From positions 151,848-215,847 of the forward strand of contig DMZH01000001.1 in NCBI GenBank assembly GCA_003484955.1: 64,000 nucleotides of DNA. The letters run 5' to 3'. This stretch comes from Candidatus Woesebacteria bacterium (GTDB taxonomy: Bacteria; Patescibacteriota; Microgenomatia; UBA8517). Positions within the stretch are counted from its first letter, which is position 1. Each line of letters opens with the position of its first letter. Shown here in pieces: positions 47,952 through 51,009 of the stretch. Both the position numbers and the translations under genes were made by a program. Below the pieces are notes generated by a model, which saw only the letters and a program-made list of their open reading frames with translations, was not told where the DNA came from and did not search any database.

Positions 47952-48233
47952 TTAGGGGAGGACTATATTGAAGTTTGTTACATCAACCCCTGTGATATTT
48001 GTGATTAACAAAAGAATTAGATAGGAAAGAAGAATAATGATAAGTCCAGCAATTGCGGAAGTCAGGGTTTTTCTGGCACCCTCAACAGCTTTTGGATCAC
48101 CCCCAGAGGTAATAAATTTAAAACCCCCAACTACAAGAAGAACAAAGAGAACAATTCCGGCAAAGCCAAGAGCATAGCCTACAACCCTTTGGAACAGAAT
48201 CCCGAAATCCTCAATTGTTGCAACGTCTTCCAT
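47952..48233 (-). CDS. VirB2/TrbC-like pilin paralog 8
   Basis: 93 aa. Helix 1 (GFAGIVLFVLLVVGGFKFI), loop TSGGDPKAVEGARKTLTSA, helix 2 (IAGLIIILLSYLILLLITNITG). Confidence 0.55.
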   Translation of the reverse strand: MEDVATIEDFGILFQRVVGYALGFAGIVLFVLLVVGGFKFITSGGDPKAVEGARKTLTSAIAGLIIILLSYLILLLITNITGVDVTNFNIVLP

Positions 48234-48287
48234 AACAAATATATTTTAAGTCAAATAGACATATTGAGCAAGAAGCTGCAAAGACCA

Positions 48288-48632
48288 TTAGATGGGTTTA
48301 ATTGTGAGGTTAAAGATGTTTATGCCAAAGAAAGTGTTAATTAAAGCGACAATAGCCCAAGCGGCAAAAACTATTACCAAGCCCACCAAAGCCGCCGTGA
48401 TTTGGTTCCTGGCAGACTCGGTTTGAGCCTTGTCTCCGCCTGAGGCAATCCATTTAATTCCGCCGATTACCAAAATAAAGAAGAAAATTACGGCCGCAAC
48501 TACCACAATAAGCCTAATTCCGCCACCAATAATATCGTTCAACTCAAGACCTGTAAGTTTATCAAGATTCTCGTCACCTAATGGCTGAAGTTTAATTGTC
48601 TGGTCAACTGCCTGTGCAAGTAATTTCTGCAT
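48288..48632 (-). CDS. VirB2/TrbC-like pilin paralog 7
   Basis: 114 aa. ...IRLIVVVAAVIFFFILVIGGIKWIASGGDKAQTESARNQITAALVGLVIVFAAWAIVALINTFFG. Confidence 0.55.
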   Translation of the reverse strand: MQKLLAQAVDQTIKLQPLGDENLDKLTGLELNDIIGGGIRLIVVVAAVIFFFILVIGGIKWIASGGDKAQTESARNQITAALVGLVIVFAAWAIVALINTFFGINIFNLTIKPI

Positions 48633-48646
48633 ATCTTATGTGTATA

Positions 48647-49036
48647 TTATCGAATTATTAGATTACCTATGTCAAGAGTCAATATTGAAATACCAAAGAA
48701 ATACTCAACAAGCTTCACTATGGCAAAAACCGAAAACAAAATTACTATTCCTATTAAGGCATTTGTTATTTTACTCCTGGCATTTTCAATTGCTTGTTTG
48801 TCCCCGCCAGAGGATATCCACTGAATTGCACCGGTAACAAGAACAAAAAAGAAAACCAATGCCCCACCAATTAATAAAATATTAATAAGCGCAGGAATTA
48901 ATTTTTGGAAAAAACTGACTCCGGTCTCTTTACCCAGATCTCCCAGAGTGGGGTTGACGATGGATCCTTTATAGCTTGGGTTAGCCGGAGGAATTCCGAT
49001 GCCGTCATCAACACCTGCGATTAAGAAATTTTTCAT
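48647..49036 (-). CDS. VirB2/TrbC-like pilin paralog 6
   Basis: 129 aa. ...LIGGALVFFFVLVTGAIQWISSGGDKQAIENARSKITNALIGIVILFSVFAIVKLVEYFFG. Confidence 0.55.
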   Translation of the reverse strand: MKNFLIAGVDDGIGIPPANPSYKGSIVNPTLGDLGKETGVSFFQKLIPALINILLIGGALVFFFVLVTGAIQWISSGGDKQAIENARSKITNALIGIVILFSVFAIVKLVEYFFGISILTLDIGNLIIR

Positions 49037-49410
49037 TGGCTTTGGAATATTTGAATTTTACCGAGCAAAGAGAAAATGTCCAAGAAATCAATTCCGAATA
49101 TTGTACCTATCAAATCCAAAATAAATATTGATGCAATGACTACAACCAGACCAACGACTCCCGTGGTAATTTTCTTCCTGGCAGATTCTAGTGCCTGTTT
49201 GTCTCCACCGGATCCGATTATTGAGATGGCTCCCGTGATTAAGGTAAAAAGGAACCAAATTATAGCAACAACCGTCATTACACCGATAACCATGGAAATG
49301 AAAGTTGCCAGATTCATAAATCCTTGATCTTGAACCGTGCCCAAAGTTCCAAAACCTTTAAAACCCCCCTCTGGCGCTATTCGGATATTGTCTGCTAGTA
49401 AATTTCTCAT
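49033..49410 (-). CDS. VirB2/TrbC-like pilin paralog 5
   Basis: 125 aa. ...VIGVMTVVAIIWFLFTLITGAISIIGSGGDKQALESARKKITTGVVGLVVVIASIFILDLIGTIFG. Confidence 0.55.
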   Translation of the reverse strand: MRNLLADNIRIAPEGGFKGFGTLGTVQDQGFMNLATFISMVIGVMTVVAIIWFLFTLITGAISIIGSGGDKQALESARKKITTGVVGLVVVIASIFILDLIGTIFGIDFLDIFSLLGKIQIFQSQ

Positions 49411-49413
49411 GTT

Positions 49414-49767
49414 TTATAAAGTTGGAATGTTTGGATTAAGAATAAATCTTGGATCTCCAAATATCAATTGACCAAAAATGGCTGCCAGAATAAACGATCC
49501 GGCGGCAATAGCTAGCCCAAGCGCCGTCTGCCAAATTTTAGCCCAAGCACCCGCAACCTTTTTAGGATCGTCCCCCGCAGAAAGAAACGCATATCCAGCC
49601 AGAACAAAATTTAAAAGGGCATAGATGCCTGCCCCAACTATTAGAATCCAGATGACAGTTTGAATTAAATTTCCGATTCCTTGTCCTGGACTATCGGAAT
49701 ATTTTGCAACTGCATCAGGGGGAGTAATGCTACCGAAGGGGTTATCCTGTGCAAGTAGTTTTGTCAT
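49414..49767 (-). CDS. VirB2/TrbC-like pilin paralog 4
   Basis: 117 aa. ...WILIVGAGIYALLNFVLAGYAFLSAGDDPKKVAGAWAKIWQTALGLAIAAGSFILAAIFGQLIFG. Confidence 0.55.
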   Translation of the reverse strand: MTKLLAQDNPFGSITPPDAVAKYSDSPGQGIGNLIQTVIWILIVGAGIYALLNFVLAGYAFLSAGDDPKKVAGAWAKIWQTALGLAIAAGSFILAAIFGQLIFGDPRFILNPNIPTL

Positions 49768-50100
49768 TTAAATAATATTTGGCATTCCAATAAGCTGTCC
49801 GATCAATTTTACTATCCAATAGGATGCAAATACAATAACAAAGCCGATTACCGCCGACGTAATTGTCTTTTTTGCCTGCTCCGCTTTTTGAGGATCACTT
49901 TGTCCGGCACTTCCTATCATGCCGATTCCTCCCAAGATAAAAAAGAAAAGAAGAATGAGGCCCGCAAGAACAAAAGCAATATTTATGAAAAGAGTAACTA
50001 TAGAACTAACCCCAGTTAAGCCTAAAAACGGACTTTGAACCGGCCCCACTACTCCGTTTCTGAAAAGCTCCTGCCCGAGATTGAAAGTAAGATAATTCAT
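49768..50100 (-). CDS. VirB2/TrbC-like pilin paralog 3
   Basis: Start placed at the internal Met (MNYLTFNLGQE...) immediately after the upstream stop. ...IAFVLAGLILLFFFILGGIGMIGSAGQSDPQKAEQAKKTITSAVIGFVIVFASYWIVKLIGQLIG. Confidence 0.5.
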   Translation of the reverse strand: MNYLTFNLGQELFRNGVVGPVQSPFLGLTGVSSIVTLFINIAFVLAGLILLFFFILGGIGMIGSAGQSDPQKAEQAKKTITSAVIGFVIVFASYWIVKLIGQLIGMPNII

Positions 50101-50101
50101 T

Positions 50102-50428
50102 TTATTTAAATATGTTACCAAAAGCCTGAATGCCTAGTATTTTACCGATTAATACAACCAAAAGGTAAGCAAAAACAACAATAATAAAACCTATGATTGC
50201 ATTTGAGATTTTGCCCTGAGCCGACTGCATGGCTTTAGGGTCACCCCTGGAAGTCATTATTTGCAGCCCTCCAATTATTAGATAAATCAGGAGAGCAATT
50301 CCGGCAGCGCCAAATATGTATGGAAGTATGGACCCAATAATGTCTCCAATTTTTGCATAACCGCCAAATTTTGCAGTAGGGAAAGCGCCTGATTGTATTT
50401 TATCCAAATCTAGATTTTGAGTAAGCAT
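50102..50428 (-). CDS. VirB2/TrbC-like pilin paralog 2
   Basis: 108 aa. ...ILPYIFGAAGIALLIYLIIGGLQIMTSRGDPKAMQSAQGKISNAIIGFIIVVFAYLLVVLIGKILG. Confidence 0.55.
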   Translation of the reverse strand: MLTQNLDLDKIQSGAFPTAKFGGYAKIGDIIGSILPYIFGAAGIALLIYLIIGGLQIMTSRGDPKAMQSAQGKISNAIIGFIIVVFAYLLVVLIGKILGIQAFGNIFK

Positions 50429-50430
50429 GT

Positions 50431-51009
50431 TTATTTTCCAAATCCAAAAGCATCCAATCCCAGTATATCAACTCCTATAAATCTAAGTATAAATACTGAA
50501 AATACCAAGAGAATCAAACCGGCAACAGCTGATGTTAAAAGTTCCTGACCGGCTTTTAATCTCTCTGGGTTTCCTGAGGCTGTCATGGTCATAAACCCGG
50601 CATAAAGCATTAGGAGAAACGCAATTCCGCCACCTACACCAACAGCCCATTTGAGAAGCGAGGAAAGAAATTCATTGGTGGAACCTAACACCGGTAAACA
50701 ACCAATGGCTGTATTAATTCCCCTACCATCATTGCCGCAGAGGTACGCATCAACATTAGCAGCGGGAGTTTTCAATCCTTGACGGATTTCTTCTTGAACG
50801 CCAGCCTTAGTATCCTCACAATCCTTTTGTGTGTCACAGCAATATCTATTTATTTTTCCGGGAGTTGGAAAATTTTGGCTACATGTAACAGTTTGTGTTC
50901 CTGTGCACGTAGTTTGATTTGAGGCAACCTGGGTACACGATGCCTTGACATTTTTTTCAAAAACGAACAGTAGAAGAAATCCAAGGATAAAACCAAATAT
51001 TTTTTTCAC
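50431..51009 (-). CDS. VirB2/TrbC-like pilin paralog 1 with extra N-terminal Cys-rich domain (promoter-proximal)
   Basis: 192 aa. Signal peptide (MKKIFGFILGFLLLFVFEKNVKA), then a Cys-rich domain of about 90 aa with 9 Cys (SCTQVASNQTTCTGTQTVTCSQNF...RYCCDTQKDCED...LCGNDG...GC), then the shared pilin module ...WAVGVGGGIAFLLMLYAGFMTMTASGNPERLKAGQELLTSAVAGLILLVFSVFILRFIG. Confidence 0.55.
   Translation of the reverse strand: MKKIFGFILGFLLLFVFEKNVKASCTQVASNQTTCTGTQTVTCSQNFPTPGKINRYCCDTQKDCEDTKAGVQEEIRQGLKTPAANVDAYLCGNDGRGINTAIGCLPVLGSTNEFLSSLLKWAVGVGGGIAFLLMLYAGFMTMTASGNPERLKAGQELLTSAVAGLILLVFSVFILRFIGVDILGLDAFGFGK

Follow-up and report, generated by a model that had tools for sequence, protein, structure and literature searches.

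A predicted array of eight VirB2-like pilin genes in a type IV secretion locus of a Woesebacteria-like Patescibacterium

When eight divergent genes for small membrane proteins stand one after another near the genes of a type IV secretion system (T4SS), do their products form one structure together, or are they alternatives to one another? The question is raised by a 64,000-nt stretch of DNA from Candidatus Woesebacteria bacterium (assembly GCA_003484955.1, contig DMZH01000001.1, positions 151,848 to 215,847 of the forward strand), which is referred to here as the window and to which all coordinates below refer unless another locus is named. According to the list of open reading frames (ORFs), eight minus-strand ORFs follow each other in unbroken succession from 47952 to 51009; they were named W1 to W8 in the order of transcription. 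An earlier reading, made from the letters alone (the sequence-only reading), had described these ORFs as a set of VirB2/TrbC-like pilin paralogs. Its coordinates proved exact and its observation was confirmed, while its interpretation was supported only in part. We conclude, with high confidence, that the array encodes VirB2-like pilins (PF18895) of a chromosomal, Gram-positive-type (MPF-FATA-like) T4SS in a Woesebacteria/Microgenomatia-like Patescibacterium, the nearest named relatives being metagenome-assembled genomes (MAGs) of Woesebacteria. We also lean, tentatively and at a little under an even chance, toward the eight proteins being co-expressed, distinct subunits of a heteromeric pilus-like conduit.

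Hydropathy analysis found two hydrophobic segments of ~20 residues each in all eight proteins. A MAFFT alignment showed that they share a module consisting of helix 1, a loop of the S-G-G-D-(P/K) type followed by A-(R/K)-x-x-(I/L)-(T/S), helix 2, and a G-(I/V)-x-(I/V) motif whose glycine is one of two that are invariant in the alignment. The shared two-helix module noted in the sequence-only reading was thus borne out, and its loop consensus holds as a general form with several variants across the array (SGGDPK, SGGDKA, SGGDKQ twice, SAGDDPK, SAGQSDPQ, SRGDPK, and ASGNPE). The likeness is not accidental: the gathering score of the PF18895 (T4SS_pilin) profile, 26.6 bits, was passed by six of the eight proteins (29.9–44.2 bits; E-values of 2e-11 to 6e-7), namely W1 (35.8 bits), W2 (41.5 bits), W3 (44.2 bits), W6 (29.9 bits), W7 (34.3 bits), and W8 (32.7 bits). 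W5 scored below it (20.3 bits) and W4 had no Pfam match; both are tied to the family by a profile built from the array, by matches to NCBIfam family NF045849 (E = 0.007 each), and by conserved position. The match of W4 to the array profile was strong, and its same-position orthologs are 63–81% identical. NF045849 was the best NCBIfam family for all eight proteins (16–35 bits; E-values from 8.7e-9, for W2, to 7e-3). Every one of these scores lies under the 40-bit equivalog cut-off of that family and therefore indicates distant relatedness rather than membership. A weak match to TrbC (PRK13871; E = 0.064) was also seen for W7. The top families were pilin families only, and no holin or phage family was matched. 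The T4SS context agrees, as genes for PrgI, TrsD, and VirB4 lie 7–13 kb from the array, a synteny that is kept in all related loci extending far enough.

W1 (50431–51009; 192 amino acids [aa]) opens the array. It is followed by W2 (50102–50428; 108 aa; loop SRGDPK), which is leaderless and has two transmembrane (TM) segments, and by the likewise leaderless W3 (49768–50100; 110 aa from its ATG; loop SAGQSDPQ). An alternative TTG start at 50121 would lengthen W3 to 117 aa; the ATG at 50100 is likeliest, and of four contigs identical here, three have W3 annotated by gene callers at 110 aa. The divergent W4 (49414–49767; 117 aa; loop SAGDDPKK) again has two TM segments. W5 (49033–49410; 125 aa) and W6 (48647–49036; 129 aa) share the loop SGGDKQ, and both have positional orthologs. 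The series ends with W7 (48288–48632; 114 aa; loop SGGDKA) and W8 (47952–48233; loop SGGDPK), the shortest at 93 aa, orthologs of which were found in more than 120 clusters at 70–95% identity. Spacing within the array was measured at −4 to 54 nt rather than the 0–55 nt read earlier; the tight packing stands, and one junction is a 4-nt overlap between the start of W6 and the stop of W5. Coupling between start and stop codons is tight, and each gene has its own start codon. By their spacing, the eight genes make up a single packed transcription unit, and the genes of two envelope proteins, p808 and p532, come next. The intergenic region between W1 and a divergent SpoIID-domain gene (51010–51071) probably holds the promoter of the array operon; a promoter-like site within it (TTTACT-16-TAAAAT; 51043–51016, minus strand) is a consensus match only, the scan count being not above that of shuffled sequence. 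Because promoter and terminator scans of the window did no better than shuffled sequence, the operon structure is read from gene spacing only.

The AlphaFold2 model of W8, computed from a 38-sequence alignment, is a helix-loop-helix hairpin (helices 8–42 and 47–81) with a mean predicted local distance difference test score (pLDDT) of 83.5. Helices at residues 111–143 and 148–177 of W1 (pLDDT 80–90) form a hairpin as well, so a helix-loop-helix hairpin was modeled in both protomers. Fold searches with the hairpin models were unspecific, small two-TM hairpins being common. Two to four lysine or arginine residues are present in each loop and the tails are neutral to acidic, which agrees modestly with a topology in which the loop is inside and the termini are outside. 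W2 to W8 begin with hydrophilic tails of 18–51 aa that lack a signal peptide. These N-termini had been called unrelated, which is incorrect for W4 to W7; the four share the start M-x-(K/N)-(L/F)-L-(A/I)-(Q/D/A), which is kept in their orthologs and may be a processing signal, an insertion signal, or a contact between subunits, and fainter traces of it occur in W2 and W3. Among orthologs, hairpin cores are 58–89% identical and tails 37–56%. The cores of W7 and W1 are the most conserved, that of W7 leading the array with 89% over seven loci.

Similarity to pilins of known structure was sought at several levels. At E ≤ 1, none of the eight proteins matched PF04956, the canonical TrbC/VirB2 family, and the array profile found no pilin among all PDB sequences, including the solved VirB2, TraA, and TrwL. 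An hhalign comparison with Agrobacterium tumefaciens VirB2 (sequence validated against PDB 8cue) was not significant (E = 0.09). With PrgF of pCF10, the alignment covered the last part of helix 1 together with the loop; the PrgF loop (G-V-K-E-I-R-S-G-..-D-D-P) and that of the window (G-G-F-K-F-I-T-S-G-G-D-P) are visibly alike, although the similarity is not significant (hhalign E = 0.057). PrgF itself had no significant match to PF18895 or NF045849. What remains of the VirB2/TrbC interpretation is therefore the PF18895 family, the hairpin, and the T4SS context, and not membership of the canonical family PF04956.

The complete related loci that were compared (L001, L003/L004/L007, L005, L006, L009, and L010) each contain exactly eight pilin genes, as detected with the profile of the eight. 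They share a common order, in which a SpoIID-like gene is divergent from the eight pilin genes, and these are followed by genes for a protein of ~800–920 aa and one of ~540 aa. Best BLASTP matches between loci fell at the same array position in 336 of 336 cases. Orthologs are 47–97% identical and paralogs 24–44%, and the ratio of non-synonymous to synonymous divergence (dN/dS) is 0.02–0.26 at every array position. No recent duplication or conversion between paralogs was found in the array, its best nucleotide repeat being 71% over 82 nt, nor were inverted repeats or invertible promoters. Positional orthology, low dN/dS, and the lack of repeats together indicate that the paralogs are older than the split between these Woesebacteria-like loci and that each has been maintained. 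Taken as a whole, the comparisons show that the eight paralogs are ancient and that each is kept at its own position under purifying selection, which favors distinct structural roles and disfavors a repertoire for variation. The earlier idea of an antigenically variable set of paralogs accordingly fails for the classes themselves, which are old and fixed; allelic variation between strains is nonetheless real. Antigenic-variation cassettes were considered and rejected, there being no recent copies or inverted repeats and each gene having its own start in a packed unit. In L003/L004/L007 (Woesebacteria GW2011_GWB1_39_10), a more distant relative, the array is interrupted at locus coordinates ~10446–10811 and ~13049–13937, with all eight pilin genes intact; W1 and W2 are separated by a 23S_rRNA_IVP-family gene and W7 and W8 by an AbiEii-type toxin-antitoxin pair, and a gene for a PemK toxin is found upstream.

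With a cut-off of E ≤ 1e-3, an exhaustive profile search matched 86,548 representative clusters. In the resulting list, which was sorted by summed score and so favors multi-module proteins, the top matches were single ORFs with 2–15 hairpin modules (P0361–P0510; e.g., P0361, P0362, P0364, P0365, and P0385). In the protein records of these putative poly-pilins, certain orders of classes, W1-W2-W8, W6-W6-W7, and W5-W6, recurred in independent clusters. By Rosetta-stone logic, such recurrent fusions of different classes suggest that the pilin classes work side by side.

How the array varies among close relatives was seen in a comparison that covers three of them (L001, L006, and L017) and short genes. 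In L001 and L006, the flanks are 92–99% identical to the window at the protein level (bPH-domain protein, p630, SmpB, p223, DnaG, and the N-terminus of PrgI), with synonymous divergence (dS) of 0.14–0.39. In L017, the ATPase core is similarly close (VirB4, 97%; TrsD, 99%; PrgI, 94%). Identity collapses over ~11 kb, from ~41.0 to 52.4 kb, in genomes that are otherwise 91–96% identical in nucleotide sequence. The island so defined comprises p906, p532, part of p808, the pilins W1 to W7, and the SpoIID-like gene. Within it, p906 is swapped for unrelated genes in close relatives. The p532 protein is 36–37% identical in L001/L006 and 85% in L017, and the SpoIID-like protein is 57–60% identical in L001/L006, only about one-third of its gene being present in L017 (80% identical). 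W2, W3, W5, W6, and W7 are 39–81% identical in L001/L006 and 60–88% in L017. Synonymous differences in these five pilins amount to 0.63–0.79 per site in most of the comparisons, near saturation, against 0.13–0.30 in the flanks. W8 diverges at background level; W1 and W4 are near background relative to L001 and saturated relative to L006, and the opposite is true of W3. Because synonymous divergence is several-fold over background and dN/dS is low, these data suggest recombinational exchange of old alleles rather than fast local evolution. The L006 contig (CAZAXL010000004.1) is titled 'uncultured Gammaproteobacteria bacterium' and carries a Woesebacteria-type locus with flanking proteins 92–97% identical to those of the window; it is probably a mislabeled or mis-binned MAG.

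W1 differs from the other seven in its architecture. It alone has an n-h-c signal sequence, a Sec-type signal peptide with predicted cleavage between MKKIFGFILGFLLLFVFEKNVKA and S, and this is followed by an ectodomain with eight cysteines, a conserved C..GIxTAIGC β-hairpin motif, and the pilin hairpin. The sole signal peptide and the Cys-rich domain had been noted before, with a count of nine cysteines that is corrected here to eight. In an alignment of W1 orthologs, the signal peptide and the hairpin are conserved, and the Cys-rich linker ranges from 0 to ~150 aa. The AlphaFold2 model shows a signal helix, a low-confidence Cys-rich N-domain, and a small β-hairpin at GIxTAIGC. A role for W1 as a tip adhesin, as put forward in the sequence-only reading, is conceivable.

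Four contigs from other metagenome assemblies (L013–L016; L015 from the Rifle groundwater datasets) are 99.4–99.8% identical to the window. Their proteins are 100% identical to those of the window except for W1 and, in L013, the SpoIID-like protein (99%). The W1 differences cluster in a hot spot of ~75 nt (~50712–50785, minus strand; aa ~75–100), just N-terminal of the TAIGC motif. They include a 9-nt indel, and L013 has a hybrid haplotype. W1 thus carries a hot spot of micro-diversity within an otherwise clonal population. Substitutions of all types occurred and were not adenine-specific, and no donor copy was found in the window; the hot spot is therefore without the signature of a diversity-generating retroelement (DGR) or of cassettes. 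The window's sole match resembling a reverse transcriptase is an RNase H domain. DGR activity and gene conversion were thus rejected as sources of the hot spot, given no adenine bias, no donor in the window, and no long repeats between paralogs.

The T4SS genes lie downstream of the array. A gene for a CD1110-type VirB4 ATPase (37420–39240, minus strand; PF19044, E = 1.9e-27; NF045971, 367 bits against a cut-off of 325) holds the only Walker A motif of the cluster. Beside it are genes for a TrsD-like protein homologous to the N-terminal part of VirB4 (39237–39920, minus strand; NF041427 TrsD, E = 2.3e-8; NF045975 VirB4_plasma, E = 6.4e-10) and for a PrgI/VirB3-like membrane protein with a C-terminal extension (39917–40984, minus strand; PF12666 PrgI, 29 bits against a cut-off of 27). 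Downstream of virB4, p950 (34531–37383, minus strand) is a 950-aa membrane protein with TM segments in residues 526–646 and no Walker A motif; its counterpart in L018 carries a Peptidase_M23 domain. The window ORFs that were scanned included neither a relaxase nor a coupling protein (T4CP). The genes dnaN, dnaA, rnpA, and yidC are directly beside the T4SS cluster (31271–33950, plus strand; 29559–30949, minus strand), ~17 kb from the array to dnaA/dnaN, and the locus is therefore taken to be origin-proximal.

Between the ATPase core and the array are three large genes. That of p808 (45488–47914, minus strand) begins 37 nt downstream of W8 and is probably co-transcribed with the array. The 808-aa protein has an N-terminal membrane anchor (TM 9–27) and 20 cysteines; it is syntenic in all related loci, shows mosaic divergence from close relatives, and had no sequence match in Pfam, NCBIfam, or the PDB. 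Its C-terminus (…WIHESDAS…) is reminiscent of a lytic-transglycosylase motif, an impression that no tool supported. The next gene encodes p532 (43856–45454, minus strand), a 532-aa protein with a signal peptide and at least five hydrophobic segments, which is thus a polytopic membrane protein. Its family has more than 1200 homologs, none with a Pfam domain; it resembled no PDB chain, and a comparison of its family profile with PrgH was negative. By position and topology only, p532 is a candidate for a VirB6-type platform. The convergent gene of p906 (41127–43847, plus strand) encodes a soluble protein of 906 aa without a family match, 100% identical in L013 and absent from L001 and L017. Pfam scans (to E ≤ 10) and NCBIfam scans gave nothing usable for p808, p532, p906, p950, and p187.

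On the other side of the array, the SpoIID-domain gene (51072–52751, plus strand; PF08486, E = 2.8e-20) is divergent from W1 and adjoins the array in every related locus. Its product has a signal or anchor segment and a coiled coil, and may be a partner in cell-wall remodeling. It could also stand in for a VirB1-type wall hydrolase, which is reported missing from most Patescibacterial T4SS loci. The other window ORFs that were scanned are mostly housekeeping genes, and transfer RNA (tRNA) and transfer-messenger RNA (tmRNA) genes are present. The tmRNA gene (56028–56390, plus strand; tag ANFNKSASANYALAYA) adjoins smpB, and the matching tRNA/tmRNA neighborhood of L001 has a LAGLIDADG homing-endonuclease ORF (2760–3620 of that locus) that is absent from the window.

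Is an array of eight exceptional? It had been considered unusually large, a view that the literature does not sustain. A survey that applied PF18895 and related profiles to 3,035 Patescibacterial genomes reported 441 arrays of 2–11 pilin genes in 383 assemblies, notably in Microgenomatia and Saccharimonadia; identity within an array averaged 25% (Quinonero-Coronel et al., 2025; PMC12102498). The arrays were close to virB4, TrsD, and PrgI, often also to dnaA/dnaN, and relaxases were absent; VirB6 was scarce in Microgenomatia. In Southlakia, a pilin series and the T4SS were essential for epibiotic growth by transposon sequencing (Wang et al., 2023; PMC10633639). Since arrays of 2–11 genes have been published for the phylum and the six-gene array of Southlakia is essential, eight pilins are not unusual. 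The window agrees with the surveyed arrays in family (PF18895), gene number, Microgenomatia-type genome, paralog identity (~25–30%), proximity to virB4/TrsD/PrgI and dnaA/dnaN, and lack of a relaxase. There is no categorical difference, and the window locus is one more instance of this published class, matching its description point for point. Strict positional orthology, the ~11-kb mosaic island, the W1 hot spot, and the recurrent poly-pilin fusions do not appear in the passages of that paper that were searched.

The only experimental anchor is Southlakia epibionticum ML1, which likewise has its pilin series in a Gram-positive-like T4SS cluster without coupling or relaxase proteins (PMC10633639); it belongs to Saccharimonadia and has six pilins, whereas the window is Woesebacteria-like and has eight. 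In Gram-positive bacteria, conjugation by pCF10 requires the VirB2-like protein PrgF (B2), which has been modeled as a pilus on the VirB6-like PrgH (bioRxiv 10.64898/2025.12.18.695078). Like W2 to W8, PrgF is small and leaderless, a hairpin of two TM segments around a charged loop, and its MPF-FATA-type cluster also encodes PrgI and a CD1110-type VirB4. PrgF systems differ in having one pilus-forming protein each instead of eight paralogs, in being conjugative (relaxase and T4CP), and in having a recognizable VirB6-like PrgH. The diderm pilins VirB2, TrbC, and TraA share with the array the hairpin architecture, a basic loop, an inferred N-out/C-out topology, and the T4SS context, and W1 has a cleavable signal peptide like that of VirB2. 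The array departs from them in lacking matches to PF04956 or solved pilins and signal peptides in seven of eight proteins, in belonging to a monoderm envelope, and in having subunits of eight separate classes where those systems have a single major pilin and a VirB5 tip. To our knowledge, every characterized T4SS pilus makes do with a single major pilin and a tip protein. The best NCBIfam family of the eight, NF045849, represents the Mbov_0395 pilin-like conjugal transfer protein of a Mycoplasma integrative and conjugative element, which adjoins a VirB4 family (NF045975) that matched both TrsD and VirB4 of the window; that protein is single-copy and belongs to a mobile element, unlike the array, whose scores stay below the cut-off of the family.

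Several virB2-like genes in tandem within one T4SS are also known from Anaplasma phagocytophilum and Bartonella, where the paralogs have been proposed to be a repertoire of alternative pilins and are read as antigenic or host-interaction variants. Could the window encode such a repertoire, one or a few pilins being used at a time for surface variation (antigenic, phage-evasion, or host-range)? The low identity of the paralogs would suit it, as would the gene-scale mosaic in which pilins are far more diverged than their flanks and the hot spot of W1 inside a clonal population. A repertoire has been suggested for Patescibacteria, and adaptation to host strains by array pilins raised as speculation, in the survey (PMC12102498). 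However, the window classes are fixed and old, all eight occupy the same positions in every locus, and each is under purifying selection. Recent duplication, conversion, inverted repeats, and invertible promoters were all lacking; the genes are translationally packed in one unit, different classes are covalently fused elsewhere, and the variation lies between alleles of one class and not in a choice among paralogs. We therefore regard a repertoire of alternatives as improbable. Distinct subunits of a heteromeric conduit, the reading that we prefer, fit these observations better, and several points nonetheless weigh against it and against the pilin assignment. No significant sequence similarity to canonical VirB2/TrbC or to PrgF was seen, and a signal peptide of the kind usual in diderm VirB2 is missing from seven of the eight proteins. 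No VirB6 or VirB5 homolog was detected near the array by library scans, PDB searches, or the PrgH comparison. The basis for co-assembly, positional orthology and gene fusions elsewhere, is indirect. Finally, a T4SS pilus has never been seen by electron microscopy in Patescibacteria or Gram-positive bacteria (bioRxiv 10.64898/2025.12.18.695078), and a 2025 review calls a Patescibacterial pilus 'an intriguing possibility' (PMC12857230).

The unseen pilus and the undetected VirB6 and VirB5 would also be expected if the hairpins served the T4SS without an extracellular pilus, staying embedded in the membrane, forming a short channel or stalk through the cell wall or S-layer, or serving the translocon in an accessory or chaperone-like capacity. 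Poly-pilins of up to 15 modules point the same way, since they resemble polytopic membrane proteins more than polymerizing monomers. Labeling of PrgF speaks against this in a related monoderm system, where it supports extrusion of the loop into the lumen (bioRxiv 10.64898/2025.12.18.695078). Variable tails on conserved cores likewise fit surface exposure, as does the way in which tails and envelope neighbors have diversified between strains, and we consider hairpins without a pilus improbable. A much smaller chance still attaches to an unrelated two-TM family (holin, bacteriocin or immunity protein, or other small membrane protein) that lies near the T4SS by coincidence. Small hairpins with two TM segments occur widely and have little structural specificity, and no link in sequence to VirB2, TraA, or TrwL of known structure was found. 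On the other hand, the best profile matches were to pilin families only, no PHROG match had a function attached, PrgI/TrsD/VirB4 synteny is kept, and such an array was essential within a T4SS cluster (PMC10633639). A holin or phage origin was likewise rejected, there being no annotated PHROG match and the neighbors being T4SS and housekeeping genes. In ranking the rivals, we place a membrane-retained or short-channel role ahead of a repertoire of alternative pilins, and consider an unrelated two-TM family essentially excluded.

If the eight proteins do build a heteromeric conduit, its assembly might proceed as follows. The hairpins would insert with both termini outside, W1 entering by its Sec signal peptide and the leaderless W2 to W8 probably by YidC/Sec. 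The VirB4/VirB3 machinery would then pull them onto a polytopic platform, possibly p532, where they would co-assemble into a pilus-like tube or a conduit spanning the cell wall toward a host cell. The lumen would be lined by the basic loop, with the variable N- and C-tails turned outward. The eight classes would be distinct structural subunits, major and minor, and not alternatives, with W1 contributing an exposed, variable Cys-rich domain. The SpoIID-domain protein and p808 may remodel or contact cell walls. Recombination would swap the exposed parts and the envelope neighbors between strains, plausibly tuning host or surface specificity or the evasion of phages; the exchange of alleles of exposed components between near-identical strains favors a role in partner or surface specificity.

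By itself, the array adds one more example to a published class, and it is the comparative results that are worth following up. The class leaves the question of why a genome of ~1 Mb retains 6–11 divergent pilins in an essential T4SS, and the poly-pilin fusions hint at which classes neighbor each other. A bolder proposal, which we consider unlikely but more probable than any of the rivals above, is that the filament or conduit is obligately heteromeric, built from eight VirB2-like classes, and that the tails, the W1 ectodomain, p808, p532, the SpoIID-like protein, and p906 together make up a recombining host-specificity island. If this were true, the island would set which host cells are open to the epibiont, analogous to the receptor-binding modules of phages.

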